Of a stretch of 64,000 nt of DNA, positions 44,592 through 62,371 are shown piece by piece. This DNA comes from a virus. The stretch spans positions 64,001 to 128,000 of IMG/VR virus record IMGVR_UViG_3300042691_026427; one strand, given 5' to 3'. The first letter of the stretch is position 1; every line of letters starts with the position of its first letter. Below the pieces are notes generated by a model. The model saw nothing but the letters and a program-made list of their open reading frames with translations, did no database searches and was not told the origin of the DNA. The translations under genes and the position numbers were made by a program.

Positions 44592-44651
44592 AATAGAAAC
44601 CTCGTTGTGTTCTATTATTTAGTCTGTTACGAAAATATGCCATATAGTTGA

Positions 44652-45062
44652 TTATGTCAGGTCAGCAATCATAAACTCTTCATCGAAATATTGACGAACA
44701 TCTGGAACCATTCCTTGACTTGTGTCAAATTGCCATTGCCCAATGACTTCTAGTATTTGATTGTAAATTGTCGAGTTGTCTGTGTATCTTACAAAATATG
44801 GATCATTGCCGTATAACAGATCAGCATCGTCCAAATAGTCAATAGGATCGCCACCAAAGTATTCCGATAACCAACGAGCGTAGCATATGCCTACCATGTA
44901 GCTTTTTGCAGGATAGATCCATCCGATATCTTTTTCAGTAAAATATCTTACAGCATTATTTGTTATGTCATCAGACAGCACAATTTCTTTGGTATTGAGA
45001 TCGTCATCAAACACTTGATTGATCCGATGATAAACTTCTTGTCGTATTTTCCATTCTTTCAT
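44652..45062 (-). CDS. Hypothetical protein, last gene of the radical SAM cluster
   Basis: 136 aa; overlaps the upstream rSAM gene. Confidence 0.7.
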   Translation of the reverse strand: MKEWKIRQEVYHRINQVFDDDLNTKEIVLSDDITNNAVRYFTEKDIGWIYPAKSYMVGICYARWLSEYFGGDPIDYLDDADLLYGNDPYFVRYTDNSTIYNQILEVIGQWQFDTSQGMVPDVRQYFDEEFMIADLT

Positions 45063-45972
45063 TTTTGTACCAGTTTATTAAATTGTAATAACCATTACAA
45101 CTATTGTCAAGATCCTTAACATACCTATAGTGCTCAGTTAAGCACCCGCCAAAGTAATCACAAGTGCGGCAAACATCACTGACATTAGCTTGTTTTTCTT
45201 TCTTAGTCCATTTAATGTAGTCATCAAATGAATCAAGTCCTAGAAAGTATTCTCTATCGTTAAGATCAAATTCAAGAACACCAAAGTTACCATTAGGAGT
45301 TATATAAACATGATCATCACTGAATGCATTTCGTTGCTTGTTTATCACATCTTCTATATAGTATTCATTAATAAATTCAAACTGTTTAGGTATTGAAGAT
45401 GCTATCCATTTTTTAACAAATTTTTCGTAATCAGCATGGCTAACATTGTAGCAGTTGGCCTGATTAATACTATAAGGTTTTATCTCAACACTTTCGACAC
45501 TTGAACATAAATTCATAGATTCAATTAACTCATCTACATTCATTTTCAATACTTCAGGACTTGCCAATACTAACACTGCAATAGGCACAGGACTCATTAA
45601 CATATTTTGATAAACTCGATCATGCTTTTCACGAGCTGACCAATCGTAACTAACACTTAGATAAAAGTCATCTTCGTAAAATCCCTCATGTAACATTGAA
45701 AAATTAGTAATAACATTAATCTTTCCTTGATAATGTTTACGAATAACATCACGCATTGCATAGAAGTAATCTTTTTTTAGAGCACCAATTTCACCGCCAT
45801 ATAAATCTATATGGCCTATCTCAGGTATTTGAGCCAATAGGCTATCTAACTTATCTAAGTCTATTTTATTAGTATCGGCAAGTTGCTGTTCAGTAAGATA
45901 ACAGAAGTCACATCTAAAATTACAAAAATAACTAGGATTGATCGAAACGGTAATAGGCTTATTCATGTTCAT
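45007..45972 (-). CDS. Radical SAM protein with C-terminal Cys cluster
   Basis: CNFRCDFC, YGGE, and C-terminal CRTCDYFGGC...C. Confidence 0.9.
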   Translation of the reverse strand: MNMNKPITVSINPSYFCNFRCDFCYLTEQQLADTNKIDLDKLDSLLAQIPEIGHIDLYGGEIGALKKDYFYAMRDVIRKHYQGKINVITNFSMLHEGFYEDDFYLSVSYDWSAREKHDRVYQNMLMSPVPIAVLVLASPEVLKMNVDELIESMNLCSSVESVEIKPYSINQANCYNVSHADYEKFVKKWIASSIPKQFEFINEYYIEDVINKQRNAFSDDHVYITPNGNFGVLEFDLNDREYFLGLDSFDDYIKWTKKEKQANVSDVCRTCDYFGGCLTEHYRYVKDLDNSCNGYYNLINWYKNERMENTTRSLSSDQSSV

Positions 45973-47029
45973 TTACATAAGGTGTAGGATCTACTTTTCC
46001 AGTCAATCCGTTTGCTTCAATTATGAGAGGCGCTAGAGTTTTCATCTTAACACAATGAGCTTCTACCATATTGTGGTCTTTTAGATCTTTGATTGTTTTC
46101 TTGCAACCGTTGCATATTTGAAACATAGGGCAAGTCCAACAGCTCTGTTTTAAACTTTGTAATTCAGGTTGAAACTGTAAGGGAAATACTTTCTCCCCTT
46201 TCATTTCTTCTTCAAAGTTTATATTGTAGATCCGGTCATCACCAAATGCTCCGCAACTGTAATAATCGCCTGTAGGCTGCAAGGTTCTTATACCACTATC
46301 GCACGATCTGTTCTGAGGACAACTTGTGGCATATCCGTTCAAACGATTTACCATTTGTTTTGTGTTAAATTCCCATTCAGTTAACCCTTGTTGCCAAATT
46401 TTTACATATATTTCGTATATGTCAGCTAACATGTATGGTCTACCTTCTTGTCCCATAGTAATATTTTTAAATTTAACTGGAGGGCCACTGCTAAATGCAT
46501 AATTGAGTTTACATTCAACATTCATTTCTTTTGCCAGCTCTACATTCTTAATTGCAAGATGTTGATTCTCTTCTGTAATTACTGTGATAAAATCAGGACG
46601 ATATCCTATGCGCTCTAGCATCATATTGCTGACTGCCCAAAAGTCCTCTTCGCTGAATTCTGTTAGGTCTCCCTTAAGACGGCCGCCGCCATATTGGAAA
46701 CTAGTTGTGACTCCTAGGCGAGGATGCTTAAACAGAGATTCCCACTTGGTAGGATTTTTATAAAATGGCCACAGATTACTTGTAAAACTGATAGTAGCTG
46801 TCGAGCCTATATTGTCTAAGTGTTCAATAAGTTTCCAATAATAATCTGGTGGCATCATTAAGGGGTCGCCGCCATTGACAATTATAGTTCGAGTTTCTGG
46901 AAATCTTTCTAAGAAACGAAAGATATATTCATGATCAAGCTCTGCAGACTTATCTTCAGTAATGTTCGTGCTAGAACAAAATGTGCATTTAAAATTGCAC
47001 CGTTCAGTTGGCTTGATTATTAGATCCAT
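45959..47029 (-). CDS. Radical SAM/SPASM protein
   Basis: KPTERCNFKCTFC, NGGDP; SPASM-like C..C...YYSC...CWTCPMFQICNGC...C. Confidence 0.9.
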   Translation of the reverse strand: MDLIIKPTERCNFKCTFCSSTNITEDKSAELDHEYIFRFLERFPETRTIIVNGGDPLMMPPDYYWKLIEHLDNIGSTATISFTSNLWPFYKNPTKWESLFKHPRLGVTTSFQYGGGRLKGDLTEFSEEDFWAVSNMMLERIGYRPDFITVITEENQHLAIKNVELAKEMNVECKLNYAFSSGPPVKFKNITMGQEGRPYMLADIYEIYVKIWQQGLTEWEFNTKQMVNRLNGYATSCPQNRSCDSGIRTLQPTGDYYSCGAFGDDRIYNINFEEEMKGEKVFPLQFQPELQSLKQSCWTCPMFQICNGCKKTIKDLKDHNMVEAHCVKMKTLAPLIIEANGLTGKVDPTPYVNEHE

Positions 47030-48674
47030 ATTCTACTATTTCTTCAAAGAGGTTATTATAGATTAACTGCTCGTTTGAATTTATAAATTCTTCGATTATT
47101 TCTAATCTATTTTTTCCATTTATTTTTGTTATATCCTTAGCAGCAGTTTCGTAATTTAGTGTATCTTTTACATCGTTGTATATCTCTTTAAAAGAACTAA
47201 TGTTATTCATAGCGGTCCAACAATATTCAAGAAATGTCCGAACATCTGGTAAAACATCTTTTAAGTTTTTCCAAAGTTTCCTGACTAATGTATCTGATGC
47301 AAAAGACATAATAAACATTTGAATGTTATCTTCTAATGTATAAGAGTTACAACTGGATATAGTTTTAAAATAATTTTTACGATTTTTATAAAGGCCGCTT
47401 GAAATAAAAGAAATTCCTTCTTCTACGGTTTGTGTGAAAACTTCTACTAATTTTATTTTATTTAAAGCACAATAAAGATCATCAGTAATTTCACTATCTG
47501 GTAGAGCCATATAATCATAAAAACAATATTGAATATTATTGTTTTCTAAACTATTGTATATCACTAACAGTTCATCATAAAAATCATCCAATGTTGAACC
47601 CGGCATTGCTCTTATAAATTCCATAAAAGGAGATGATGCTCCAAAATTTTTTTCGCAGTATTCAATTAATTGTATTTTATCTATCTTGTTTAAATCAACA
47701 CGTTTAGAAATCTTCATTGCATTATCACTTAAACTCTGAATACCTATATTAGGAACTATCGATTTTCTCCCGTTTGACGTATCTGTTCCTGTTATTTTGA
47801 AAATCTCATCAATTATCTTAATTTTTTTATCTAGATTTGTTGTTTTAAACAATGAAGAGTTTATAAATGACATTCCCAAGTCATATGCATATTTTAAGAA
47901 AAACAAGTCTCGTTCTAAGAATAATCCAAAGTTTGCATCAACATTATAAATTTGCTTATAACCTAATTTGTGCAGCACATCTATTTCTCTAATTACAATA
48001 TCTTCAGGTTTCTTTAACACCTTAGTTCCAATGCCGCCACCCCATTCACAATATGTACAATGAAATGGGCACCCTCTTGTAGTTTCTATTAATACGTGTG
48101 GAAATATTCCCTCAATATCGGCGTAGTCTTTTATCTTTTTTAAGTAATCGAAATTTTCTTCATATGCACAAACATTGGGAAATTGCCATTCTCGGCATTT
48201 AGTACTTCTTAATTCAAAACTAATATCTTCTATGTTAGGTATTCCGTTATTTTCAAAATAGGAATCTATAAAATCTTGCATGAATAGTTCGCCTGGTTTT
48301 GTTACCTGACAGAAATAATCATACATAGTTTTCTTTTTGAAGATATCTATATCTTTCTGCCCTATTTGCGGACCGCCCAACACATTAACTATATTAGGGT
48401 TAATATTCTTTGCCAATCTTGCAACTTCATCTATGATATCAGTATTCCAAATGTAAGAACTGTATAAAATTATGTCAGCAGTATTAACTTCTTCCCATAT
48501 TTCTTTACAACTTTGATATCTGTTATATTTGAATGGTGGCTCTAACCATTCAACTAAATCTTTGTATTTTCCAAAATTATCATAGTATGATTTCATCCAT
48601 ATCCAAGTCACTGGACTGAATAGCTCAGTGTCAATGCTAGGAGGATTTACAAAAGCTATTTTAATTTTTTTCAT
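47004..48674 (-). CDS. Cobalamin-binding-domain radical SAM protein (class B methyltransferase-like)
   Basis: N-terminal SSYIWN..VLGGPQ (B12-binding-like); ETTRGCPFHCTYCEWG; DANFG; GIQS. Confidence 0.8.
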   Translation of the reverse strand: MKKIKIAFVNPPSIDTELFSPVTWIWMKSYYDNFGKYKDLVEWLEPPFKYNRYQSCKEIWEEVNTADIILYSSYIWNTDIIDEVARLAKNINPNIVNVLGGPQIGQKDIDIFKKKTMYDYFCQVTKPGELFMQDFIDSYFENNGIPNIEDISFELRSTKCREWQFPNVCAYEENFDYLKKIKDYADIEGIFPHVLIETTRGCPFHCTYCEWGGGIGTKVLKKPEDIVIREIDVLHKLGYKQIYNVDANFGLFLERDLFFLKYAYDLGMSFINSSLFKTTNLDKKIKIIDEIFKITGTDTSNGRKSIVPNIGIQSLSDNAMKISKRVDLNKIDKIQLIEYCEKNFGASSPFMEFIRAMPGSTLDDFYDELLVIYNSLENNNIQYCFYDYMALPDSEITDDLYCALNKIKLVEVFTQTVEEGISFISSGLYKNRKNYFKTISSCNSYTLEDNIQMFIMSFASDTLVRKLWKNLKDVLPDVRTFLEYCWTAMNNISSFKEIYNDVKDTLNYETAAKDITKINGKNRLEIIEEFINSNEQLIYNNLFEEIVEYGSNNQAN

Positions 48675-49723
48675 TAGTTATATTTTAACACATTTTCTTC
48701 GTCGAGTCTATTAAAAAATTCTCTAAACAGACATTCGTCATTGCGTTCCAATTTTGCCCAATCAGCTTGCACAAAACATCTAAATGAGCAACGATCAAAC
48801 CATTTACATCCCAAGCATTTGTTGCGTTCAAGATGCGCTTCTATAATATTGCTGTTAGAAGAAAAATTAACCGGAGTTAGAAAATCTTCAGGCTCTGTCT
48901 TTACATAACGACAAGTTACTTCTCTACCTGACGGAAGTATAGTAGTCTTGTTCATCGAATAACAAGTCATCTTATTACGACTGTTTTCCAATAGATCTTT
49001 TACGGGATAAATGTTGGGATAATTCTTGGCAATATACATCATACAATCCAACATTTCCTGTTCACTAGGCATCATCTTATCTGCAGACAATTCTGGAACA
49101 TAATAATCAAAATACAATGTATATTTTTTATACAGTGTATCTATAAAAAATTTGTCTTGGTTGCGTAATATCTTTCTAATAGCCGGAGCAGTGAGTACAA
49201 ATCCAATAACAGTGATCCAATCTCCAAATATTTTTAAGTTATTTTCAAATTGTAATGATCTGTTTAAATTAAAACCTCTGCCTGCAAAGTCATAAGATGT
49301 CGAGATATATGCATTATTTCCCACAGCTCGCATACGAGTTATTAAGTCAATTACACGTTGACTCTTGTTGAATATCAAATTAGTTACCCAATTAAATCTA
49401 ACAATCTTGTTGTTGAGGTTAACCCAATCATTTATTTTTGAATAGAATTCCCAATAAGATTCAAATGTGTTATCTGGCACTAGATCATTAAAAATCTCTC
49501 CACCCATGACGTTTACAATATGGGAATCCTTATCAGATGCCGTCATGAAATCTATAACTTGCTGAGCCTTATCAACAATACTGTTAAGTTCCATTCCTTC
49601 TGTAGAATCGTGATCTTGTCCGCAAAATGCACAACTTAGATTGCAAAATTCAAATAGATGCAACTCGATTTCAGATGAATCGGGTACCTTATCTCTTAAT
49701 ACATGTTTTAGAAAATCACTCAT
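48674..49723 (-). CDS. Radical SAM protein with C-terminal Cys cluster
   Basis: CNLSCAFC, MGGE; C...C...CLGCKWFDRCSFRC...C. Confidence 0.9.
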   Translation of the reverse strand: MSDFLKHVLRDKVPDSSEIELHLFEFCNLSCAFCGQDHDSTEGMELNSIVDKAQQVIDFMTASDKDSHIVNVMGGEIFNDLVPDNTFESYWEFYSKINDWVNLNNKIVRFNWVTNLIFNKSQRVIDLITRMRAVGNNAYISTSYDFAGRGFNLNRSLQFENNLKIFGDWITVIGFVLTAPAIRKILRNQDKFFIDTLYKKYTLYFDYYVPELSADKMMPSEQEMLDCMMYIAKNYPNIYPVKDLLENSRNKMTCYSMNKTTILPSGREVTCRYVKTEPEDFLTPVNFSSNSNIIEAHLERNKCLGCKWFDRCSFRCFVQADWAKLERNDECLFREFFNRLDEENVLKYN

Positions 49724-50129
49724 ATATATGTTCCTGTGTCACGTTGTCTATATTAAAATCTTTTGATAATTCAAAACAATATTTAGGCGACGTCTTAACA
49801 TGGACCACTGCCAGTTTAAATTCATTCGACCATTTCTCTTCTTTATTCATAGACGACGTTAATATTTTAAACAACTCCTCCATAGAAGTTATTCCTAGTT
49901 CTTCTGTTAGATATAGAATATTATTATCTATTAATCTAAATTCCATTGTTAACGGATAGTAGTATCGACAATTGTACTCGTATATTACAATAACAGATAC
50001 AGGAAACAAGGCTTTCTTAAAATATGAATACTCTGTTACTGCTTTGGCATTATCTATAGCAGTAATAGTGCATGATATTTCTATGTCTGTATTTTTTCTA
50101 ATAAACACATCATCTGTAGATTGTAACAT
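49716..50129 (-). CDS. Hypothetical protein (rSAM cluster)
   Basis: 137 aa; overlaps both neighbours. Confidence 0.6.
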   Translation of the reverse strand: MLQSTDDVFIRKNTDIEISCTITAIDNAKAVTEYSYFKKALFPVSVIVIYEYNCRYYYPLTMEFRLIDNNILYLTEELGITSMEELFKILTSSMNKEEKWSNEFKLAVVHVKTSPKYCFELSKDFNIDNVTQEHIYE

Positions 50130-51061
50130 TATCTCACCTCAAACATTTTATATATAGCGTTTGGATTATCACTGTGTTTATATGCCCAATAGACTTTGCT
50201 CACAAACGTGCAGATTGCATTTTTGCCCAACGAATCTGATAGATAGGTAATCCTACAATCATTGCCTAGATCTCTATATAGTAGTTCTTCATATTGTTCT
50301 GCATATATAAGAGAAACAGGTTCTAAATAACTATCAACGCCAGCAGCATCTCTGTGAGCTATTGCATGATTATTAAATATTTTGATCATTTCTTTATAGT
50401 CAGGGAACAGTTTTCTTAATGCATGTTCGACATTAACATTGTTATGGTCAAAATCATAACCTAATATAAAATACCAGTCATTGTGATCTAGCATTTTTTT
50501 CGGAATATCAGAAAGTCGACTGGTTGAAAATTCTAAATCAGTTCCTGTAATATAATGAGCATTAAAAATGTCTCTCTTCATATCAGTTGCATACATTTGA
50601 AGTTCTTGAGATAACAATGACCAACAACAGAATTTAACGTATTCTAATAGTTTAGTTTTTCCCAAACCGCTTAATAGAAAGTTTGGTAATAAAAACTCGT
50701 AACCTAAATTGTCAATTGACAATTCTTCTAGACAAGAAATCTTATTATAATCTGTTTGGAAGATATCAACATATTTTTCTAAATTACTTTTTTCGTTATT
50801 CAAAGATAAATTTAAGAAGTATAACTCAAACAAATTGGTTAAGTTTTCTTTGCTGTTATCTTTTAATATATTTGAAAAAAAATCTCTAAAAATAGTTACA
50901 AACTGTTCTTCACTGCAATTAATCTTTATACTCTTTTCTTGGAATAATAATGTTTGCCAAAAAGCATCACTATTCTTTCCCAAAAGGTTGTCAGCAGATA
51001 TTGTTGAATCATAATCAGATTTACAACGTGTTAACCAAACATTGTTGAATAATCTTATCAT
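50129..51061 (-). CDS. Hypothetical protein, paralog of 56911..57963
   Basis: MIRLFNNVWL / YEFLLPNFL / LLYRD align with MFHLFKRAYL / FEYLLPDYL / LLHRD. Confidence 0.7.
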   Translation of the reverse strand: MIRLFNNVWLTRCKSDYDSTISADNLLGKNSDAFWQTLLFQEKSIKINCSEEQFVTIFRDFFSNILKDNSKENLTNLFELYFLNLSLNNEKSNLEKYVDIFQTDYNKISCLEELSIDNLGYEFLLPNFLLSGLGKTKLLEYVKFCCWSLLSQELQMYATDMKRDIFNAHYITGTDLEFSTSRLSDIPKKMLDHNDWYFILGYDFDHNNVNVEHALRKLFPDYKEMIKIFNNHAIAHRDAAGVDSYLEPVSLIYAEQYEELLYRDLGNDCRITYLSDSLGKNAICTFVSKVYWAYKHSDNPNAIYKMFEVR

Positions 51062-51801
51062 AATTTACAAACTTCAGACAATAAAATATCTTTTGCCCAT
51101 CTAATAGGAATATGTTTAGATACATCTCTATTAGATGCAATAACTAGTGAGTTATCATGAGCCAATAAGCATTCTTCTACAGTACGATCTGACATAGTTA
51201 ATGTGCCAATATCTTTTTCAAAACTTAATGCTGCTACTAAATTTGCGTAATTGAATAGTTTATATAAGTTTTCTCCATATATATTTTCTACATACTGTTT
51301 TATTTCTAGGAAGTTTATGGGCACAGCTAGAGTATGTGTATCTCTTAGCATATCGTATCCCATTAATAACTGATCACTAGTAAATCTTATCAATGATCCC
51401 ATAAAGAAATATGTAGTGTTCTGTTCAATTGACTTCACGGGCTTATCTATTTCAAGGAGTGCAATATCGAACTGAGACGCACTGGTCATCCACTTTAAAT
51501 ATCCTTGGTCAATAATTTCGTATACTGCACTATCAGACCTAGATTTATTACGACTGTCTAGAGTACTGTGACGAATTTTACAATAAGATACCCAGTCTGA
51601 TCTAGAATAGCGTAATCCAGTAGCTAGTTGACCAAAATAAACAGACAACATTCCACTTATCGACAAGTGTCCTGGCTCATAATTTCTATCACCTAATGTA
51701 AATCTATAAAATCCTGGAAAGAAATCCCCAGAAGATAAAATTACCTTTGCAAATTCTTCGTCTGTAATATCTCTAGCTAGATATATTAAATCAATTGCCA
51801 T
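51058..51801 (-). CDS. Hypothetical protein (rSAM cluster)
   Basis: 247 aa; overlaps both neighbours. Confidence 0.65.
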   Translation of the reverse strand: MAIDLIYLARDITDEEFAKVILSSGDFFPGFYRFTLGDRNYEPGHLSISGMLSVYFGQLATGLRYSRSDWVSYCKIRHSTLDSRNKSRSDSAVYEIIDQGYLKWMTSASQFDIALLEIDKPVKSIEQNTTYFFMGSLIRFTSDQLLMGYDMLRDTHTLAVPINFLEIKQYVENIYGENLYKLFNYANLVAALSFEKDIGTLTMSDRTVEECLLAHDNSLVIASNRDVSKHIPIRWAKDILLSEVCKL

Positions 51802-52894
51802 ACGGAAGTGTACCCATTGCGTTTACTACTTCAAGGGCATTCTTTGCAACTAGACAATCTTTTACATTATGAACATCCATTAGATGCAAAATACCACGAT
51901 CAACACACGATCCTAAGAAAGGGCAGTCACCACATTCAGTCTTATCTCCGACATTAGAATACTGTGCTAATTGAACTGTCTGTTCAAAATTTTCAAAGTC
52001 TGTAGCGTGATGATTAGGTGTTGGAATTTTTAAGTCATCAATAAAACTAGCATATCGTTCATACAGTAATGGTGAGTAATAAAATTCTCCATTCTTCCAA
52101 TTGTATTGTTTTTCAACTAGCGAATCAGATAGTCGTCCAAACGAAAATCTTAGATAGTTATTTTTTTCATTAGTTACTACAGAATCATTAAACATTTTTT
52201 TAATTCGTTCTGCTGAATTAAAAAATTCTTCTGTAGTTAATTTCTCGTCTTTTCTTCCAAAAGAAAAATTAAAATCAATTGTGGTTTCGAATAAATGATT
52301 TACTCTCTTGTGTAGGTAATCATAATTTTTTAAGAGATCAGATATTTTAGTATTATCATAGTCGTAAACGTTCATAATGCCAAATGATCTTAGCTTTGTA
52401 GGCCAGTTCATCAATCGAATTACTTCTTCTTGATTTTTCTTAATTGTTTCTAAGTATTTGTCATTTTCTATCTGTTCAGGTTCGATAATGACATTGATTT
52501 CTAATTCGAGATTTGAATAATGATCTCTCAACACATCGGCAATTAAACTGGCCTTGCTGATGTCTAAGTAAGTTGTTTGAAAAGATAATCTTTTAAATTT
52601 ATTGAATATCTCTATAATTCTCTTGTCTGTTAGTAATGCATATGCATTTTTTGCTGAAAGGAAATCAGTAGGGCCAACAAATGCAATGAACGGACTGTAA
52701 TAATTGCCAGTGTTAAATGAATTTAAAACATTTTTTAAATCTTCATAGTGTGCATCTGTAAGAGGTTCTGCACCTTCTTTGTTTACATGACATCCTTTGC
52801 AATTCCACTGACAGCCATTTAATAATTCAAAATTTAAATTAAAATAAAATGTATAGGAATCATTTAAATTACCAGAAGCAAGATAGGCATCCAT
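51791..52894 (-). CDS. Divergent radical SAM protein (PTD in place of GGE), paralog of 58639..59640
   Basis: CQWNCKGC; GPTDFL; C-terminal CGDCPFLGSC...C. Confidence 0.8.
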   Translation of the reverse strand: MDAYLASGNLNDSYTFYFNLNFELLNGCQWNCKGCHVNKEGAEPLTDAHYEDLKNVLNSFNTGNYYSPFIAFVGPTDFLSAKNAYALLTDKRIIEIFNKFKRLSFQTTYLDISKASLIADVLRDHYSNLELEINVIIEPEQIENDKYLETIKKNQEEVIRLMNWPTKLRSFGIMNVYDYDNTKISDLLKNYDYLHKRVNHLFETTIDFNFSFGRKDEKLTTEEFFNSAERIKKMFNDSVVTNEKNNYLRFSFGRLSDSLVEKQYNWKNGEFYYSPLLYERYASFIDDLKIPTPNHHATDFENFEQTVQLAQYSNVGDKTECGDCPFLGSCVDRGILHLMDVHNVKDCLVAKNALEVVNAMGTLPYGN

Positions 52895-53614: not shown

Positions 53615-54728
53615 TATAATTTTTCCTAAGTTCTGTTAAATTTTGTTTTGCTTTTGTTTCGTATAGTTGTATAAAGGTAGATTTGTTATTTCTAATCCTC
53701 GATATAACTTTTTTCGACAACGGGCATTCATCGCTGTCATCAAACAGACTTGCATCACAATTTCCGCCGCAAATATCATAATGTTCACATGTGAAGCACA
53801 TTTCATGTTGTGTCATTTCGGCTAATTTATTTATAATGACATCTACGGCCTTGGTTTGAAATGTATCCCAGTCGTTTACCATTTCATCAACTGTAGATAC
53901 AGGTTCAACATAAGTCTTGTCGGGGCAAAATCCAACAGTACCATTTGGATTTAACGTAAATGTTCTTTTATCGCAACAATTACATTTACAATCAAACATT
54001 TGACCGCTCAATAGAGTTTTGGTGAATAGATCTACTTGTGGTAAGCACCAAGTAGTTTCATTATGTTGGTAATATTCAACCAAAGTATCTAACCAATTTG
54101 CCCATTTGATATTATTTGGTTTTAAACTTCTTGTCTGTTCATCAAACGTAGTGAGCAATTCAAAGTCTATAGAATCAACTCCATCAAATAGTTTTACAAT
54201 TTCGAGAGGATCATAATTTAAAAGATATTTCTGTGCTGTGATAGATATATGCACTTTTATACCTGCATCTATTAATTTTTTTAAATTACCAAAGAATAAA
54301 TCTTCTTGCTCATGTTTTTTATTAATTGCAATAGATCCAAATCTTATATCAGCGTCCCAACTTACTCCAATAGTTGATCTATATTCATCCTTAATAAATT
54401 GAATAAATGTATCGTCTACCTTATAGAGTAAATTGGTTTGGGGTACAATGTCCATCGGCATTGAGCCAAAAGTATTTCTTATTATTTCATTTACTTTAAC
54501 TAAATGTTCGTAAGGTGATAAAAATGTCTCGCCACCATGTATGTAAAAAGTAGCCTTGGCAGGATCAACATTTTTTTTAATTGAGGTTAGAAATTTTTCA
54601 ATGTAACCTAAATCAGTAAGCATATAGGGATCTTTGTCTCCTAATGTAAAACAGTGAGTACAATTTAAATTGCAACCCTGTATCACTCTTAGATAGATTA
54701 CATTGAATTCGTTTGAAAAAACGTTCAT
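53577..54728 (-). CDS. Radical SAM/SPASM protein, paralog of 59633..60688
   Basis: CNLNCTHC, HGGE, SWDADIRF; CKCNCC..GFCP..CFTCEHYDICGGNC...C. Confidence 0.9.
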   Translation of the reverse strand: MNVFSNEFNVIYLRVIQGCNLNCTHCFTLGDKDPYMLTDLGYIEKFLTSIKKNVDPAKATFYIHGGETFLSPYEHLVKVNEIIRNTFGSMPMDIVPQTNLLYKVDDTFIQFIKDEYRSTIGVSWDADIRFGSIAINKKHEQEDLFFGNLKKLIDAGIKVHISITAQKYLLNYDPLEIVKLFDGVDSIDFELLTTFDEQTRSLKPNNIKWANWLDTLVEYYQHNETTWCLPQVDLFTKTLLSGQMFDCKCNCCDKRTFTLNPNGTVGFCPDKTYVEPVSTVDEMVNDWDTFQTKAVDVIINKLAEMTQHEMCFTCEHYDICGGNCDASLFDDSDECPLSKKVISRIRNNKSTFIQLYETKAKQNLTELRKNYNELRSDDCTNTN

Positions 54729-55597
54729 AACTTCGGCTTGCTTGCCACAATAAAATAATAGTTAAGTTTATTGTTTTTATGATTTTCTATAAAATATTCT
54801 TCAATGCCACTTTTAAGTTCCCACTGAGATCTCAATTCCCAATAAGGTACCAAATCTTTAGTTCTATCTTCAGTAAAAATTAAGTTTAAGCCTGAGTTAA
54901 CTATTGCAGTTTCGTATTCATTAATACCATGCATGGTAGATGCGTAATGATCGTTAATAGGTTCAATAAATTCATTAAAATTATTAGTGTCTAGATTGTC
55001 GTTAAAACACCAAGTGGCAATTACAAAGCGGCCACCGGGTTCTAAAACTCTGTATACTTCCTTAAACAACATGTCAAGTTCTAATGCATATTGAGTAACT
55101 TCGCAGCAATATGCATGACTAAAAGTAGCATCAGCATAGGGAATACTTAGAAAATTAGCCTGTCTAACTTCTGCTCTATCTTGTAAATTTCTTTTTTCTA
55201 TTTCGTCTTTACAAAAATTAGTTTGATACTCAGTTAAATTTACACCATCGACTTTGACATTTGAAAACTTTTCTATAATCCTAAACATGGTGCCTCCGCG
55301 TCCGCAGCCCAAGTCAATGACTCGTTGTGGTGTACCAAATAGTTTATCAAACTGTAAAAATGTTATTAAGTGACTAGTCAGTTTGTTTTCTTGTCGTTGG
55401 ACTTCTGCTGTAATTTCTTCTGTAGTTGCAGTAGTAGCATCTATTTCAGTAGGGCCTAAGCCAAAGTGATGATGAACAAAACCATCAACTGCTTGTAGCA
55501 AGTTTCTATCATTCTTTTTATTGTTATAATAATCAAATACCGCAGTACTAAGCGTGTTTTGAGTTTGGGTATGATCGTTGTTAAATTTTGTATACAT
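54725..55597 (-). CDS. SAM-dependent methyltransferase, geranyl-diphosphate 2-C-methyltransferase-like
   Basis: Motif I DLGCGRGG, plus VDGFVHHHFGLG, INDHY..MH..EY and PYWELR...GIEEYFIE. As I recall them, these match prenyl-diphosphate C-methyltransferases. Confidence 0.8.
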   Translation of the reverse strand: MYTKFNNDHTQTQNTLSTAVFDYYNNKKNDRNLLQAVDGFVHHHFGLGPTEIDATTATTEEITAEVQRQENKLTSHLITFLQFDKLFGTPQRVIDLGCGRGGTMFRIIEKFSNVKVDGVNLTEYQTNFCKDEIEKRNLQDRAEVRQANFLSIPYADATFSHAYCCEVTQYALELDMLFKEVYRVLEPGGRFVIATWCFNDNLDTNNFNEFIEPINDHYASTMHGINEYETAIVNSGLNLIFTEDRTKDLVPYWELRSQWELKSGIEEYFIENHKNNKLNYYFIVASKPKL

Positions 55598-56218
55598 TTA
55601 AATTTCCAGTAGTGCTTTTGCGTCTGTTGCAAAAGAATATCGTGTGCCAATAAAAGGTTTTGCCCTATGCCAAACATCCGACGCCATTACTATCATAGTA
55701 TACGGGATAGGAGCATATTTGTAAACCGGATTTAAATTTTCAGGCAACCAAACATGTGATAACGGGTTTTCTTTTAAATCTTCATAGAATTCAAAACATC
55801 CGTTATCCATTCCAATAGTATCATCTTGTTTGATATATAATACTGTGGTCACGTCACCGATTTCATCTGCTCTTAAAAAAGGTTGCCAGTGACGATGTAT
55901 ACGTTGGCCTTGCCAACTGTTAGGAGTGTTGAGCCATGAATCCTTGTCTAGATAATAGTTCTGGCCTTTGCCAGCAAATCTAGGATGCACCGTATCTAGA
56001 AAATCAAAAATAATGCTGTCTATTACAGCTTCAAACATCTTCACTTCTGGTGTATTTGTTTCCCAGACGTTTAATTTGTTTTTTTCATCATCGGGTCCCA
56101 AAAAATACATTTGCGTATTGTCAATTAACGAATTACAAAATGGTTCTATAAGTTCTTTGTAATCATTTAAATCATATATCATTGCATTAAAGTTAGGAAC
56201 TTTAAATTTGTTTGTCAA
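55598..56218 (-). CDS. 2OG-Fe(II) oxygenase-like protein
   Basis: WLN...IHRH...TVLYI...GCFEF...WHRAKPFIGTRYSFA. Confidence 0.7.
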   Translation of the reverse strand: MTNKFKVPNFNAMIYDLNDYKELIEPFCNSLIDNTQMYFLGPDDEKNKLNVWETNTPEVKMFEAVIDSIIFDFLDTVHPRFAGKGQNYYLDKDSWLNTPNSWQGQRIHRHWQPFLRADEIGDVTTVLYIKQDDTIGMDNGCFEFYEDLKENPLSHVWLPENLNPVYKYAPIPYTMIVMASDVWHRAKPFIGTRYSFATDAKALLEI

Positions 56219-56904
56219 TTTTGAACCTCATCAAATACAGTAGATTTCATCAAGGGGTCGGCAGGATAGTAATATAACTTTAACTTCAATGGTTGATAGG
56301 TAGTTGCGTTATATGTCAAACCAAACACCTTCATAAAAGTAGTGTCTTTGCAAAATTCTTTAACAGATTCGATGAACGGAATTGGAAGATTATAAAAATT
56401 TGCAACTGTTTCAACATTTTGATGCATAAAATATAAATCTTTCTTTTCGGGATTAACGCTGATACCTTGTCCCCAGTGACTTAATATTTGACTTCCTGCA
56501 ACTATCATCGGCTGTGTATGTTTCCACAGATCTAAATCATAAAATTTTGGAACCTGTTGTTTGCTATCTAAAAAATAATTGATACAATAATCGTCATGTG
56601 GTCTAACGATATTAATGTTAAATTTGTTGCAATCGATCCTTCCTCCGGAATATACAGCCATGAACTTGTGTTCGGTATAGTTTATACCATCTGCAGGTTG
56701 GAAACTAAATTGTTGCAATTTTTCTAAGTTCACACCTTCATTAAAGATAGAACCCATAACATCAATATAGGCGAACAAATAATCGTCTGGAACTTTTTTA
56801 GAATTAAACAAGTTCTCTTCTACTTTGTTACCTACGATTGTTATCTCTTCGGCATGTTGATTTATTTCTTTGCTTATTTCTTTAAAAAAGTCAATACTAT
56901 TCAT
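56215..56904 (-). CDS. Hypothetical protein (weak resemblance to aromatic prenyltransferase strands)
   Basis: 229 aa; C-terminal VFGLTY....LKLKLYYYP and internal KKDLYF. The function call is speculative. Confidence 0.55.
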   Translation of the reverse strand: MNSIDFFKEISKEINQHAEEITIVGNKVEENLFNSKKVPDDYLFAYIDVMGSIFNEGVNLEKLQQFSFQPADGINYTEHKFMAVYSGGRIDCNKFNINIVRPHDDYCINYFLDSKQQVPKFYDLDLWKHTQPMIVAGSQILSHWGQGISVNPEKKDLYFMHQNVETVANFYNLPIPFIESVKEFCKDTTFMKVFGLTYNATTYQPLKLKLYYYPADPLMKSTVFDEVQN

Positions 56905-56910
56905 AGTACA

Positions 56911-57963
56911 TTAGTAAAGTCTAAATGGAGCCAAATCTGCTGTTAAATTTTGTCTCTTTTTTCTATAGCAATAAGTTGAAAATATTTGATTAGATTTTTC
57001 TCTAAATAATTCAAATGTATAAAGACACCCAAAGTTTCTATTGATGTCTCGATGTAGTAATCCTTCCCAATCTTCAGCCATAAGCATTTGGTTTACTTCA
57101 AACATATCTTCATTACCTGTATGATCGGGCACCCATATTCTTTCTAAGGAATGCCATTGATTAACAAGATTGTTGTAATCATAGTTAGAAGTAATGTAGG
57201 AAGGTTCTGCTGAGAAATTCTCATCAACCATCCAATTTAACGTTGAGCTGTTTTTCAATTGGTCTTCGACGTTACCTATTTCAAAGTTGCTGTCAGGGTC
57301 TATTACACCCATGTCTAAGAATCCAAACATCGTTTCTAATCTTAGTTGCTCCAACTCATCTCGCCAGTTGTCAATACTAATGATTCTAACACGGTCTAGT
57401 ATTTCTTCTTTGCATAGACTTTCTTCACCATGATATAGATAGTCGGGCAAAAGATATTCGAACGAAACATCCTGTTTATTAATGACATTTCTTAAAAAAT
57501 TAGAAACTGGTTGAGCATCGTATATAACTTTGAATTCTTCGAATGATTTCATCTTAAAAGTATCTCTTACCATTTGATGTCGCGTATCGGGTGCATTAAC
57601 TTGTATATAGGATCTTACTCGCACACTTTCAACCATTGATTTATACAGGAGGTAAACATCTTGCTCTGAAGCATATTGAAATATACTTTTTGCATATTGT
57701 ATTAACAATCTCTCAGTAACATCGGTTTTTAAATAGGCGATAAGTTTGTGATCAGCTTCGTACATATATTGCCAAAATTGTTCAACATCGTTTTCAAAAT
57801 TGTTTGCCAATAACTCGTCAAATGTGCCAACTGACGGCAGTATACAAATATCTGTTGGCATTGGAAAGAGATTGTATAAATCGGTTGCCATTAACATTTT
57901 GTAACCAATACTGTCGAATTTATAATCAAATTCTAAATAAGCTCTTTTAAATAAGTGAAACAT
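56911..57963 (-). CDS. Hypothetical protein immediately downstream of the candidate substrate
   Basis: Likely start MFHLFKR at 57963, forming a TAATG overlap with the stop of 57963..58625. Confidence 0.7.
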   Translation of the reverse strand: MFHLFKRAYLEFDYKFDSIGYKMLMATDLYNLFPMPTDICILPSVGTFDELLANNFENDVEQFWQYMYEADHKLIAYLKTDVTERLLIQYAKSIFQYASEQDVYLLYKSMVESVRVRSYIQVNAPDTRHQMVRDTFKMKSFEEFKVIYDAQPVSNFLRNVINKQDVSFEYLLPDYLYHGEESLCKEEILDRVRIISIDNWRDELEQLRLETMFGFLDMGVIDPDSNFEIGNVEDQLKNSSTLNWMVDENFSAEPSYITSNYDYNNLVNQWHSLERIWVPDHTGNEDMFEVNQMLMAEDWEGLLHRDINRNFGCLYTFELFREKSNQIFSTYCYRKKRQNLTADLAPFRLY

Positions 57964-58625
57964 TATCTTCTTCCTCTTGATCCGTGGCAATTATTATGGC
58001 ACGATGAATGACACACACGTAAATCAACTGTTCCTATTGAACCTCTTAGTGCAGTAACTGCGGCAGCTAAATTAGTATAAAAATTGTTGATATTGGCTGC
58101 AGAAATAGTAGCATTTGTACTTGGTTCAGATGATACGAACCCTACAGATTGCAAATAATTATTATTAAGATGGGCTTGGCCATAAGTTAATAAAACTGTT
58201 CCGGAGAAAAAGGGGATGTTTGCATTGTCTGACGGTACGCCAGTTTGAGTATATTGACCGTTAAAATATTGAGTATAATAAAGGCCCCAAACAGCTGGAC
58301 GTAATCTAGTAGTAGCATTGGCAAATGCTTTGCACATATTAACAATTAAACTGGCGTTTATTGTCAAACCGGATGCTCCTGAACCAGGTAGATTAGAAGT
58401 CGTTGGATATGCGTATGTATTCGTACCTAACTCACTTAACCTTGCAGAGAGGTATGCTCCTGTCCAGCCGATAACAGTACCGTTGTCCCACATTCTAACG
58501 TTAATTACTGGAACGTTGTAGTAGTGTATGCTTCCACTAGGGTCCATTCGCGAGGTATTCATCACTGTTGCAATAAAGTCATTAACTACGCTGGCTTTGG
58601 TTATAACTTGTCCTGTAGATGCCAT
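57963..58625 (-). CDS. Candidate radical SAM substrate with a C-terminal (CHxx)3 tail
   Basis: 220 aa ending DLRVCHSSCHNNCHGSRGRR; AAAGGA RBS and TAAATA upstream; Thr/Asn/Ser/Gly-rich body. Confidence 0.7.
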   Translation of the reverse strand: MASTGQVITKASVVNDFIATVMNTSRMDPSGSIHYYNVPVINVRMWDNGTVIGWTGAYLSARLSELGTNTYAYPTTSNLPGSGASGLTINASLIVNMCKAFANATTRLRPAVWGLYYTQYFNGQYTQTGVPSDNANIPFFSGTVLLTYGQAHLNNNYLQSVGFVSSEPSTNATISAANINNFYTNLAAAVTALRGSIGTVDLRVCHSSCHNNCHGSRGRR

Positions 58626-58638
58626 TTATCCGTTCCTT

Positions 58639-59640
58639 TTATTTAATATCCAAAAAACAACCCATGTTAAAATCTCTTGCTATAGGAAAATACCCTTTTC
58701 CCATGCAGTGGGTTAAATTTTTACAATTGACACATTTGTCTAGTATCACGTTATTTATATCATCTATACTGCTGTAAGTTTTAATAAAACCTTCGTAATT
58801 TGGAGTCAGCACTCTAAATCGAGGATTATCTATAAAAACGTATTCATCAAAAGGAATAATAGGAGTTAAAAAAATATCACCCGGTGACCCTAAAAAAGTA
58901 AATGCAGGTTTTCGCAACAGTGTTCTGTCGTTGTATTGTTTTGTTGCATTCTCTGTACCTAAATAATGATCAGTTATGTCATGTATGGTTCTAATGCTTT
59001 CTTGCAACATGTTTGTTTTTTTCTCCAAACTTATATCTGGATTATACAAAAATGTAAAATTTAGTTCAATTATCTCATCATCGGATAAAAAATCTAACAT
59101 TTGGTTTAGTTTAACTTTTTCCTTATCGGACAATGTAAATCCGGTATTGATTGCCAAGTTGATTATAACATCATCGCCGTATGTTTCTTTAATCTTTGCA
59201 ATTCTAGATTTTATTGTTATTTGATAGTTTATGTCAAACAGTTTTGCTATCAATAGATTGACCTGCAATTCAATTTTGGCCAATGGATTATTGTTTTTTA
59301 CAATTTTAAAAAATTCTGGATCAAACCCTGTTTCTAACGTAGATGCCACACCCACATACTCAAACAATGAAACTGTTTCTGCAAATTCTGCATTTTCAAA
59401 CAGTTTGTAATTGTCCTTGTTATCAAATATATCAGTTGGCAATAGATAACAAGTTTCCAATTCATAACCGTTTTTCAACAAGTCTTTGGCCAACGATAAC
59501 GAAGATGTAAAATCGTTGTAATTATTTTTAGTTCTGTTGTAAAAACATCCCCGGCAATCCATGGAACAGTCATTCAATACCAGCATTCTAAATTCTGCCA
59601 GTTTGTATGGGTCACCATATCTTTCGTAGGAATTATACAT
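58639..59640 (-). CDS. Divergent radical SAM protein (PTD in place of GGE)
   Basis: CSMDCRGC; LPTDIF; CVNCKNLTHC...GC. Confidence 0.8.
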   Translation of the reverse strand: MYNSYERYGDPYKLAEFRMLVLNDCSMDCRGCFYNRTKNNYNDFTSSLSLAKDLLKNGYELETCYLLPTDIFDNKDNYKLFENAEFAETVSLFEYVGVASTLETGFDPEFFKIVKNNNPLAKIELQVNLLIAKLFDINYQITIKSRIAKIKETYGDDVIINLAINTGFTLSDKEKVKLNQMLDFLSDDEIIELNFTFLYNPDISLEKKTNMLQESIRTIHDITDHYLGTENATKQYNDRTLLRKPAFTFLGSPGDIFLTPIIPFDEYVFIDNPRFRVLTPNYEGFIKTYSSIDDINNVILDKCVNCKNLTHCMGKGYFPIARDFNMGCFLDIK

Positions 59641-60688
59641 GATGTACAGCCTTGATAGGAATTGTAATTCTCTTTGGCTTTGCCAATGCTTTCATCAAAC
59701 TTTTCGGTGCTCCGCATATATCGTCCTGCCATTCTAGTTGATGACAATCGCTGTTGCAGTATTCAAATACTTCGCAAGTATAACATCTAGGATCCCTAGC
59801 TCTTTCGCAAGAAATGTTTTCTAATCTCTGGGGACTTGTTAACAAAGAGGCAATGTCATCATCAATGTGGCCAAATTGATGTTCTGGGGCGCTATTGGGG
59901 CAACCAGATATAGTTCCATCAGCATTTAGGGTAAACAGCTTTTCTTCACAGTCCCTGCAAAATGTAGCGCCATTGGTAAGTCCAATTTCAAATTTAGCAT
60001 AGATGCTTTCCATAAATTCGTTACTGAACCATGACCTTGCGTCATGCTCTACTATCTGATGGTGCATCTTTAAAAACCACTGATCTTGTTCTAAGTTTGT
60101 GGGAAATATATGCAAATTTTCTCTTGCGCTGCCGTTCATAGTGAGACGCTCAAGTGCTAGATCAGTAACGCCTAAATCTCTTATCCATTCCAGCAGATCA
60201 ATAGGTTCCATGGCAACGGTGCCTCGGGTAACACTGACAAACAGTTTGACCTCAACTCCTAGATCAATTAGGGTCTGCAGATTCTTTCGCCATAAGTCGT
60301 ATTGTTTAGGACTGGCAAATCTTATGTCTGGATCCCAGCTAGTTCCTATGCGGCCTCCCAATGGCCCCATGATAAAATCAATCTTGTCCTGTGTTAACTT
60401 ATAAGTTAAGTTGGTAGTGACACCCCAGCTGCGACTAGCCCATAATTCCTGGCATTGATCATACACATACTGCATCGATGATATATCTGCTAAAAAGGGT
60501 TCGCCGCCGTGAAACTCTAAATGTACATGGGGCGCACTAGCTGTTTCAACATGTAGACGTTTAAGCCAATCGGCAACCTTTACATGATCCCAATATATCT
60601 TTGCGCCTTTGCTGCCGCTAGTAAAACAGTGCAGGCAATTGAGATTACAGGTTTCTGTAGTCTTGAGGTAAATCATTAATTCTTTCAT
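59633..60688 (-). CDS. Radical SAM/SPASM protein
   Basis: KTTETCNLNCLHC, FHGGEP; CRDC..GCP..CYTCEVFEYCNSDC..C. Confidence 0.92.
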   Translation of the reverse strand: MKELMIYLKTTETCNLNCLHCFTSGSKGAKIYWDHVKVADWLKRLHVETASAPHVHLEFHGGEPFLADISSMQYVYDQCQELWASRSWGVTTNLTYKLTQDKIDFIMGPLGGRIGTSWDPDIRFASPKQYDLWRKNLQTLIDLGVEVKLFVSVTRGTVAMEPIDLLEWIRDLGVTDLALERLTMNGSARENLHIFPTNLEQDQWFLKMHHQIVEHDARSWFSNEFMESIYAKFEIGLTNGATFCRDCEEKLFTLNADGTISGCPNSAPEHQFGHIDDDIASLLTSPQRLENISCERARDPRCYTCEVFEYCNSDCHQLEWQDDICGAPKSLMKALAKPKRITIPIKAVHHV

Positions 60689-60696
60689 CAGAATAT

Positions 60697-61167
60697 TTAA
60701 TAGCCTACGCTAAGGGCCCAAGTATTTTGTACACTGCTGACTCGATGTAGATAGCCCCGTGGTATTATCACATGCTGACCCGGATGCAATACAACCTTTT
60801 TATTTCGAATGTAAACTGTCTTTCGACCCTTTATTACATGCAGTAATACATTTACATCGTCTTTGTGCCAATCAAAACTGTAGCCAAATTTTTGATTGAC
60901 AAATAGGTGTATGTTTTTAAAATTTATCTTGTTAAAACAAGAACTGACAGCGTGATCTGTTTCAAGGCCTTCAACTTTTATCACAGGATAGGATTTATGC
61001 TGTTCTATCCATTGAGAAAAAGTAAAAAAATCTTTAACTATGCAATCACTGTGTTTATAGTCAGGGTGACCTATAACTTTTATTAAACCCTGTTCATACT
61101 TGGAATAATCTAACAGCTGATCGGCCAGTAATTTACTTACTGTCTTGGTCAGGCAGTGGTCCGCCAT
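60697..61167 (-). CDS. JmjC/cupin-type 2OG oxygenase
   Basis: FDWHKDDVNVLLHVIKGRK.V...LHPGQ..IPRGYLHRV (HxD...H triad). Start uncertain. Confidence 0.75.
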   Translation of the reverse strand: MADHCLTKTVSKLLADQLLDYSKYEQGLIKVIGHPDYKHSDCIVKDFFTFSQWIEQHKSYPVIKVEGLETDHAVSSCFNKINFKNIHLFVNQKFGYSFDWHKDDVNVLLHVIKGRKTVYIRNKKVVLHPGQHVIIPRGYLHRVSSVQNTWALSVGY

Positions 61168-62005: not shown

Positions 62006-62036
62006 AATGTTTTTATTTAGCGAACAACTGGGTCAA

Positions 62037-62363: not shown

Positions 62364-62371
62364 GATAATCC

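Follow-up and report, generated by a model that had tools for sequence, protein, structure and literature searches.

An expanded radical SAM gene cassette in a large phage may mature the Cys-His tail of a virion protein

Introduction

Maturation of whole proteins by radical S-adenosylmethionine (rSAM) enzymes is established, HxsA (PMC13128918) and CrpA (PMC13692751) being examples. In the HXS antiphage system, the rSAM enzymes HxsB and HxsC together with HxsD mature HxsA at short His/Ser repeats in a basic context, and a small partner protein, its function unknown, takes part (Li et al. 2026, PMC13128918). Triceptide synthases (HaaB, HtkB, YhhB and ChlB) join His C2 to the C-beta two residues on within H-x-x motifs, a reaction whose His-x-x cyclophane products have been established for HaaB, HtkB and YhhB (PMC11499958). 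The ranthipeptide/SCIFF maturases PapB and CteB form thioether cross-links on substrate Cys residues at four-residue spacing, and anSME, QhpD and CrpC (PMC13692751) are compact enzymes of about 350 aa that combine the rSAM core with a SPASM domain but lack a leader-recognition domain. Here we analyse a stretch of viral DNA of 64,000 nucleotides (the window; bases 64001–128000 of the 149,248-base IMG/VR virus record IMGVR_UViG_3300042691_026427), in which eight rSAM genes surround a gene for a protein with a repeated Cys-His tail.

The underlying unit, which we call the CH-tail cassette, comprises a protein ending in (CHxx)3-RxRR, a cupin oxygenase, four rSAM enzymes (rSAM-A, -B, -C and -D) and two conserved proteins that we name after the low coordinates of their genes in the window (52895-type and 44652-type), all in a fixed order. 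This cassette is a widespread phage family, of which the window holds an expanded copy. We consider it probable (about 0.62) that its enzymes mature the C-terminal tail of a virion protein. As many as 12 rSAM genes, accompanied by an A-type carrier or IscU, have been described in marine T4-like viral genomes, but they were treated as auxiliary metabolic genes, and the tail protein, the cassette and a substrate were not identified (Nishimura et al. 2017, PMC5332604).

The proposal shares with HXS the maturation of a whole protein by several rSAM enzymes and the presence of small partner proteins, and the phage tail contains C-H-x-S three times in most members. The two systems nevertheless differ in several respects. 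The HxsB and HxsC profiles reach 30.6 bits each, against 370 and 268, and nothing matches HxsA or HxsD, which places the cassette outside that family. The phage protein has neither the signal peptide nor the peptidoglycan-binding domain of HxsA, and its invariant element is Cys-His rather than HxS; the third repeat position may also be Q, N or A. Furthermore, the phage cassette encodes at least four rSAM enzymes as well as oxygenases, and its product appears in particles rather than serving as a bacterial defence effector.

Resemblance to the other systems is similarly partial. The phage enzymes share the compact build of anSME, QhpD and CrpC, and the family profile of rSAM-A has anSME (PDB 4k37, 8e-8) as its best full-length match among solved structures, with CteB and ChlB also among its PDB matches. 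Enzymes of the anSME type act on Cys in a protein substrate, and the last unit of the phage tail, C-H-G-S-R, loosely recalls the sulfatase motif C-x-P/A-x-R. However, the phage enzymes score 39–47 bits against a TIGR03942 cut-off of 349 and so fall outside the family, the tail reads C-H-[GSNA]-[SNA]-R without P, no sulfatase is present, and there are four rSAM enzymes instead of one. YhhB is the best NCBIfam match of the accessory enzyme 53577, but this likeness is weak (46 bits versus 445), and triceptide precursors are short and carry leaders. PapB is the best NCBIfam match of rSAM-A (3e-13, with anSME also matching), and the phage tail repeats the four-residue Cys spacing of PapB and CteB substrates; PapB, however, targets C-x3-D/E, whereas the phage tail offers no acidic acceptor, there is no RiPP recognition element (RRE; RiPP, a peptide that is ribosomally synthesized and then modified post-translationally), and the scores again lie far under the cut-offs.

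Results

A cassette of 19 genes with eight rSAM enzymes

The viral record is 44% complete by CheckV, which corresponds to a phage genome of roughly 340 kb. Within the window, the cassette occupies positions 44652–61167 on the minus strand as 19 open reading frames (ORFs) separated by overlaps or by gaps of at most 13 nt, in agreement with an earlier note on this DNA that had described about 18 co-directional, mostly overlapping or abutting genes. That note had also listed eight proteins with a CxxxCxxC motif, and exactly these eight ORFs carry it (low coordinates 45007, 45959, 47004, 48674, 51791, 53577, 58639 and 59633), either within the first 30 residues or, in the 47004 protein, at residue 202, where a B12-like domain precedes it. 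Across the whole 149-kb record, PF04055 matched the same eight places and none elsewhere, two of them above the gathering score and six weaker (E 1.5e-6 to 5.5e-3). SPASM and twitch domains are C-terminal Cys-rich domains (CxxCx5Cx3C plus an upstream Cys) that hold one or two auxiliary clusters. By motif, seven of the eight proteins have the corresponding C-terminal cluster, CxxCx5C(x2-3C), as had been claimed; TIGR04085 (SPASM, cut-off 27) recognises three of them (45959, 27.8 bits; 53577, 28.7; 59633, 32.1), and the Pfam SPASM family PF13186 matched nothing in the 149-kb record. The other ORFs encode the cupin, a 2-oxoglutarate (2OG) oxygenase, a methyltransferase and eight proteins without a Pfam or NCBIfam family, four of which match PHROGs of unknown function and one of which is the CH-tail protein. 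All eight parts of the canonical cassette are present in canonical order, with extra genes inserted (Table 1).

The CH-tail protein has a nearly invariant end

The 220-aa protein with a (CHxx)3 tail is indeed present as the earlier note described it. It begins MASTGQ and has no signal peptide; its counterpart in RSL2 is ORF068. We found 92 relatives in a set of 5.8 billion proteins, and a HMMER search over 1.84 billion representatives returned 805 clusters at 50% identity with E <=1e-3, including 527 at <=1e-10. The bodies of these proteins share only about 30% identity, whereas 218 of the 232 members examined end in (CHxx)3-RxRR followed by the stop codon, with C, H, C, H, C, H, R, R and R fixed; the remaining 14 depart from it slightly, having a fourth CH unit, a single additional residue or a truncated end. 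The invariant tail columns of the family alignment are C, H, C, H, C, H, S, R, G, R and R. An AlphaFold2 (AF2) model (pLDDT, the predicted local distance difference test, 82) shows a confidently folded body and a disordered tail. The fold of the body matched no PDB entry in Foldseek with E below 2 and gave a best Z of 3.7 in VIA-align, and a search of BFVD retrieved only uncharacterised phage proteins, one of them from the Agrobacterium phage Atu_ph07. A predicted complex of the rSAM-A family with three 4Fe-4S clusters, SAM and tail residues 165–220 scored 0.22 against a mark of 0.32, which speaks neither for nor against binding. We also considered a T4-type late promoter, TATAAATA, 127 nt upstream of the tail gene, and rejected it, as the window shows no enrichment of the motif, with 3 matches against 8.7 expected.

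Tail gene and rSAM genes travel together across phages

An alignment-based scan of IMG/VR for the tail protein gave 94 loci, of which 80 were kept. Gene content was assigned by blastp of the window proteins against the ORFs of each locus, counts are given out of 81 loci, and many loci end at contig ends. The genes occur in the fixed order cupin (48/81), rSAM-A (69), tail protein (72), 52895-type (67), rSAM-B (71), rSAM-C (63), rSAM-D (57) and 44652-type (46). In the reverse direction, a search from rSAM-C found a relative encoded in 364 viral contigs; among the best 80 of these, 56 have at least 8 kb upstream, and a CH-tail gene lies there in 54 of the 56 (39 with a strict CH tail, 15 with a slightly variant one), 3–8.5 kb upstream of rSAM-C and on the same strand. 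Homologous clusters therefore do not usually lack the tail gene, the outcome that the earlier note had set as a test of its proposal. The same note had known of no characterised system built in this way. The system is not peculiar to this phage, however; the window copy belongs, in expanded form, to a large family whose core has four rSAMs.

Several cultured phages carry the cassette, including the Ralstonia phages RSL2, RSF1 and FLC4, the Burkholderia phages FLC6, FLC8 and S13, Atu_ph07, the Sinorhizobium phage Phosso and the Pseudomonas phage pPa_SNUABM_DT01. Their genome papers merely list cupin, Fe-S oxidoreductase, radical SAM and 2OG oxygenase genes, and full-text literature searches turned up no description of the tail motif or of the cassette. 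Among 185,579 species genomes, the tail motif occurs in six contigs only, all in metagenome-assembled bins (labelled Bdellovibrio-like, Gemella and Rhodobacteraceae). Two contigs from Bdellovibrio-like bins (L095 and L096) hold the expanded cassette type of the window at 40–56% identity, including the prenyltransferase-like and 2OG oxygenase genes; the flank of L095 matches phage-only PHROG families, so these bacterial-bin contigs may be mis-binned phage DNA. Megablast of window positions 44000–62000 and 20000–44000 against 50,697 phage records gave no match, although the record that holds the window may be masked in that set.

The cassette block has a G+C content of 0.325, compared with 0.418 for the remaining window. 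The enzyme genes lie at 0.29–0.35, the tail gene and rSAM-A at 0.40–0.42 and the flanks at 0.42; a smaller dip relative to the flank was present in all seven of the other loci checked. Low G+C is consistent with a module passing between phages as dissimilar as the phiKZ-like RSL2 and the Rak2-like Atu_ph07.

A variant of the cassette occurs in contigs L056/L053 (9686–20200), where two short CH-tail genes (125–136 aa) begin 4 nt past an ORF of more than 3227 aa and are followed by five tandem rSAM paralogues of the type that we label 'PTD' (51791-type in the window); the cupin, rSAM-A and 52895-type genes are absent from it.

A homologue of the tail protein is probably part of the Atu_ph07 virion

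The tail homologue of Atu_ph07 lies at 121118–122008 of its record (9983–10873 of our locus L094), has 296 aa, ends in FCHSSCHASCHNSRSRR and has a computed mass of 31.89 kDa. The virion proteome of this phage (Attai et al. 2018, Supplementary Table S5) lists gp170 at 31.89 kDa, gp176 at 66.07 kDa and gp177 at 21.66 kDa (PMC6102473). The computed masses of the genes six and seven places past the tail homologue equal the values for gp176 and gp177, and with three masses in agreement the identification of the homologue as gp170 is secure. In that proteome gp170 is represented by 8 unique peptides at 35% coverage, whereas the cassette enzymes gp164–169, gp171 and gp172 are not in the table (PMC6102473).

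The protein was seen in gel fragments 1–9 with its peak abundance in fragment 1, where proteins of 75–139 kDa peak; other proteins of 29–32 kDa peak in fragments 7–8 (PMC6102473). This abundance in the top band suggests a high-mass form stable to sodium dodecyl sulfate (SDS) and heat. As the particles were purified with polyethylene glycol (PEG) and the table holds 131 proteins, we grade the virion association of gp170 as likely and its high-mass form as a lead.

The rSAM enzymes resemble protein and peptide maturases

The rSAM enzymes with whole-length matches resemble SPASM maturases of proteins and peptides (anSME, PapB, DynA, YhhB, CteB and ChlB), but every family match is remote, at roughly one tenth of the family cut-offs, so no specific chemistry can be read from them. 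Weak matches also include mycofactocin and quinohemoprotein maturases, and rSAM-B, rSAM-D and both 'PTD' enzymes have generic matches only. The enzymes begin directly at the cluster motif and thus have no RRE-type recognition domain; the same is true of anSME, which acts on proteins. A reading of the rSAMs as nucleotide, DNA or cofactor enzymes was tried and set aside; grouping with such enzymes was an outcome that the earlier note had named as refuting its proposal. There was no competitive match of the QueE or NrdG type, and MoaA, which matches rSAM-C, covers only the N-terminal, cluster-binding 95 residues.

Among the core enzymes, rSAM-A carries CNLNCLHC at residue 14 and a C-terminal CxxCx5Cx3C. 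The same C-terminal pattern is found in rSAM-B (CNLSCAFC at residue 27; 54% identity to RSL2 ORF072). For rSAM-C, PF04055 scores above its cut-off (37.4 bits), identity between loci is 58–78%, and the nearest full-length relatives are DynA and anSME. Finally, rSAM-D (CNFRCDFC at residue 17, CxxCx5C) is 46% identical to RSL2 ORF077 and 57% to its Atu_ph07 counterpart. The cupin matches Cupin_2 at 31.4 bits (cut-off 27.2) and has the HxD...H motif; the earlier note had called it a JmjC-like oxygenase, and its JmjC_2 and Cupin_8 matches are weak. A homologue lies upstream of the tail gene in the loci counted above, and also in RSL2 (ORF066) and Atu_ph07.

The 52895 protein matches phrog_20767 at 2e-61, and its type directly follows the CH gene in the 67 loci counted. 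Its AF2 model is confident (pLDDT 92.6), but the fold found no convincing relative in Foldseek against PDB (E 0.07 or worse), VIA-align (best Z 5.0, over 56 residues only) or an Atlas search (TM, the template modelling score, below 0.4). A relation to the rSAMs, as a degenerate member of them, was rejected with hhalign (probability 0.1–2%). The 44652 protein matches phrog_20737 at 5e-54 and marks the far end of the cassette with 45–67% identity between loci.

Table 1. Features of the window, in window coordinates
Feature	Position	Strand	Remark
Cupin (JmjC-like) Fe oxygenase, predicted	60697..61167	-	core; first cassette gene
rSAM-A, radical SAM/SPASM enzyme	59633..60688	-	core; adjoins tail gene in most related loci
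Divergent rSAM ('PTD' type)	58639..59640	-	accessory; paralogue of 51791-52894
CH-tail protein, candidate substrate, 220 aa	57963..58625	-	ends VCHSSCHNNCHGSRGRR-stop
359-aa protein phrog_36207	56911..57990	-	accessory; weak paralogue of 50129-51061 (E 0.004)
229-aa protein, candidate ABBA-type prenyltransferase	56215..56904	-	lead only
2OG-Fe(II) oxygenase, predicted	55598..56218	-	accessory; phrog_81 at 7e-9
Class I SAM methyltransferase, prenyl-diphosphate C-methyltransferase kind	54725..55597	-	accessory; several Pfam methyltransferase families
rSAM/SPASM, rSAM-A paralogue	53577..54728	-	accessory
Conserved protein phrog_20767	52895..53614	-	core; starts 3-15 nt past tail gene in most loci
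Divergent rSAM ('PTD' type)	51791..52894	-	frequent accessory; 2-6 copies in cassette variant
Three family-less proteins (247, 310, 137 aa)	49716..51801	-	accessory
rSAM-B, radical SAM with C-terminal Cys cluster	48674..49723	-	core
B12-binding (class B) rSAM C-methyltransferase-like	47004..48674	-	common accessory, 50/162 loci
rSAM-C, most conserved rSAM/SPASM enzyme of cassette	45959..47029	-	core
rSAM-D, radical SAM with twitch-like Cys cluster	45007..45972	-	core
Conserved 136-aa protein phrog_20737	44652..45062	-	core; last cassette gene
Fe-S assembly trio: IscU scaffold and two A-type carriers	42952..43962	-	~700 nt downstream of cassette
Endosialidase-like spike	36584-40420	-	fibre module
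Mtd_N/beta-propeller protein	31433-36256	-	fibre module
Collagen-like and other fibre genes	24069-27062, 6290-7282	-	fibre module
4472-aa ORF	10618-24036	-	very large fibre module

Accessory genes of the window copy

The eight rSAMs of the window comprise the four core enzymes, a paralogue of rSAM-A, two divergent 'PTD' enzymes and one of the B12 type. The paralogue, 53577, shares 27% identity with 59633 across 359 aa (E 3e-35), and its best matches are the His-cyclophane synthase YhhB (4.5e-12) and anSME. The 'PTD' enzymes are 23% identical to each other (E 4e-4): 58639 has CSMDCRGC at residue 25 and CxxCx5C, a PF04055 E of 0.0055 in the genome scan and homologues in 6 of 81 loci, while 51791 has CQWNCKGC at residue 28 and CxxCx5C, 43% identity to RSL2 ORF071 and homologues in 24 of 81 loci. 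Class B rSAM enzymes carry an N-terminal B12-binding Rossmann domain ahead of the rSAM core. Such an N-terminus had been noted for one rSAM, and the 47004 protein resembles this class, with a weak PF02310 match (24.1 bits, below the 32.1 cut-off), a match to the KedN5 subfamily (E 3.5e-29, yet 101 bits versus a cut-off of 700) and PDB matches to CysS (8.6e-16) and TokK (3e-14).

The 2OG oxygenase and the SAM methyltransferase seen by the earlier note were recovered by their phrog_81 and Pfam matches. The methyltransferase matches geranyl diphosphate (GPP) 2-C-methyltransferase (PDB 3vc1/4f84) with E 1.5e-36 over residues 20–286, the next best match being 2e-13, and scores 171 bits over the whole NF041943 (GPPMT) profile, under the 400-bit equivalog cut-off. 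From its sequence it is a relative of the GPP 2-C-methyltransferase family rather than an equivalog, and no terpene cyclase was seen in the cassette block. The 56215 protein has ESM-Atlas feature neighbours that include PTase_Orf2 and Trp_DMAT clusters (0.88–0.90) and is found in 15 of 162 loci. Neither this protein nor a ten-member alignment of its relatives matched Pfam, NCBIfam or PDB profiles (including PF11468 and PF11991), and with no sequence-profile support we keep the prenyltransferase assignment only as a lead. In the window, the methyltransferase, 2OG oxygenase and prenyltransferase-like genes stand as an insert that separates the tail and 52895-type genes. All three are contiguous in L180, a 220-kb contig (identities 34% for the prenyltransferase-like protein, 38% for the 2OG oxygenase and 48% for the methyltransferase), and L095 and L096 have the prenyltransferase-like gene adjoining a 2OG oxygenase gene, likewise at 38% identity. 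A prenylation sub-module made up of these three genes is thus a lead suggested by gene content, not a finding.

The 56911 protein matches its PHROG at 5e-16, is 24% identical to RSL2 ORF069 and occurs in 8 of 81 loci. The three proteins at 49716–51801 have no family matches in Pfam, PHROG or NCBIfam, and their homologues are confined to the nearest relatives (L079 and L011, partly L095).

Genomic surroundings

The Fe-S assembly trio downstream of the cassette (NifU_N, 5.5e-51; Fe-S_biosyn, 1e-19 and 4.5e-19) probably supplies clusters to the rSAM enzymes. Of 162 other loci, only 3 have A-type carriers at a distance of 10 kb or less from the cassette, and Pfam searches of the 149-kb record found neither flavodoxin nor Fer2. 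Between the trio and the cassette, a small protein with a NUMOD3 motif, resembling homing endonucleases, is encoded at 44214–44591 (minus strand; G+C 0.315). In an ORF of 393 aa at 2789–3970 (minus strand), the N-terminal half is ferrochelatase-like (phrog_3531/2954, E 1e-61 to 1e-66) and the C-terminal half resembles 2OG-Fe(II) oxygenases (phrog_61, 1e-38), an unusual fusion in a phage that also has Fe-S assembly genes.

Farther downstream on the same strand lies the fibre module, with collagen-like and other tail-fibre proteins. In many loci the cassette starts right after a giant ORF, which exceeds 3227 aa in L056 and measures 1821 aa in L012 and 2037 aa in L038, and in Atu_ph07 a 4449-aa structural protein is encoded a few genes from it. 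Upstream of the cupin, at 61133–62965 (minus strand), are genes for a family-less 290-aa protein, a small hydrophobic-looking protein and a Hydrolase_2 cell-wall hydrolase, so that the cassette stands between a lysis-type gene and the fibre module.

Discussion

The linkage of the tail gene to the rSAM genes, the likeness of these enzymes to maturases and the Atu_ph07 virion proteome support what the earlier note had proposed, a dedicated multi-step modification pathway acting on a CHxx-tailed protein. We infer that the substrate is the disordered, nearly invariant tail, (Cys-His-x-x)x3-Arg-Gly-Arg-Arg, of the 57963–58625 protein. The core enzymes would be the rSAMs 59633, 48674, 45959 and 45007, which have SPASM/twitch motifs and no N-terminal recognition domain, together with the cupin 60697, while the 52895 and 44652 proteins may be chaperones or adaptors. 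To this core the window phage would have added four rSAMs, the 2OG oxygenase, the enzyme resembling prenyl-diphosphate C-methyltransferases and a possible prenyltransferase, and its own IscU and A-type carriers may load the roughly 20 Fe-S clusters of the cassette enzymes. The likeliest chemistry would be a Cys thioether or conversion of Cys to formylglycine, and His C2-to-C-beta cross-links of the cyclophane type on H-x-S units; hydroxylation by the cupin may follow and, in the window phage, C-methylation and perhaps prenylation. The enzymes would stay in the cell while the modified protein becomes part of the virion, probably of its fibre or baseplate region, where the modification may stabilise the protein or anchor it covalently in the particle. 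The peak of gp170 in the top gel band fits a covalently linked form.

Several observations weigh against this proposal. Modification of family members has never been observed, so the substrate assignment rests on inference. The rSAM matches lie far under curated cut-offs (PapB 50 bits versus 340), and the accessory enzymes are nearest to enzymes of small-molecule pathways (GPP methyltransferase; CysS, TokK and KedN5). No recognisable fold is seen in the tail protein's body or in the two conserved proteins, 52895 and 44652, which makes the roles given to them guesses. Oxygenases need O2, whereas rSAM enzymes are O2-sensitive. Finally, the PEG purification of the Atu_ph07 particles and the 131 proteins reported in them (PMC6102473) mean that contamination or aggregation could explain both the detection of gp170 and its signal in the top band.

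In a bolder form of the proposal, the rSAM enzymes would make the tail reactive or cross-linked, and it would be joined covalently to another virion component, such as the giant fibre-like protein encoded beside many cassettes, or to its own copies, with further decoration by a C-methylated prenyl group in the window phage. We regard such a staple as somewhat unlikely. That the tail is a metal or Fe-S site, either at a fibre trimer axis or as an electron donor or cluster carrier for the rSAMs, which would then act on another virion protein, a sugar, a lipid or prenyl compound or DNA, seems unlikely: a plain metal site does not need the near-obligate linkage with four different rSAMs that is seen in both search directions, and it leaves the invariant RGRR end unexplained. 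On the other hand, three Cys-His pairs at four-residue spacing would share one helix face, and metal-binding His motifs are established in phage fibres and offer a precedent. The giant ORF ahead of many cassettes could be the actual target, and the GPPMT-like methyltransferase points to a prenyl substrate, although enzymes indicating prenyl chemistry are absent from most cassettes and no rSAM family of the nucleotide or sugar type (QueE, NrdG, full-length MoaA) fits.

The small-molecule look of the methyltransferase and of the CysS/TokK-like B12 enzyme can be read in another way, with the tail protein as a scaffold or carrier on or from whose C-terminus a cofactor, metallophore or small molecule is built and then released or used in the cell, as in PQQ (pyrroloquinoline quinone), mycofactocin and pearlin-type pathways. 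An exact, invariant C-terminus is also a feature of MftA-type scaffolds, and the weak rSAM matches include maturases for mycofactocin and for quinohemoprotein. We nevertheless think this quite improbable, as the cassettes of the window, RSL2 and Atu_ph07 contain no protease or peptidase, the whole protein was found in virions at 35% coverage, and its body is a conserved folded domain of 125–300 aa rather than a short leader. The same evidence bears on a secreted or released peptide, bacteriocin-like or signalling, with the 16-residue tail as its core, for which we see very little chance. A variable 'leader' followed by a conserved C-terminal 'core' next to SPASM rSAMs gives the locus a superficial likeness to RiPP clusters, and in this loose sense the 'RiPP-like' label of the earlier note can stand. 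Strictly, however, RiPPs have a short leader–core precursor, an RRE and a protease that removes the leader, whereas here there is no leader and the full-length homologue is found in particles. Profile searches of the cassette block (Pfam, PHROG and NCBIfam) revealed no protease or exporter family and no RRE or immunity gene, and the core is invariant over hundreds of phages, unlike that of antibiotic RiPPs. These results support the earlier suggestion, which had cited the lack of a protease and an exporter, that what the pathway makes is a modified protein, not a secreted peptide.

The proposed maturation of a virion protein's tail is directly testable because cultured phages (Atu_ph07, RSL2/RSF1, FLC6/S13 and pPa_SNUABM_DT01) carry the cassette. 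If this proposal is correct, many large phages devote 5–25 kb of genome, and Fe-S clusters by the dozen, to the chemical finishing of 16 residues at the end of a single particle protein. The proposal would also explain the IscU and A-type carrier 'auxiliary metabolic genes' in phage genomes. The cassette would represent a new class of radical-SAM protein modification in which at least four distinct enzymes act on one invariant Cys-His motif, and its enzymes could serve as peptide cross-linking tools. Should the tail prove to be a staple, it would be an enzyme-installed covalent link in a phage particle, made by chemistry not yet described. Maturation of a virion protein by such a pathway would also bring to light a principle that is new to virion assembly or to host attack.

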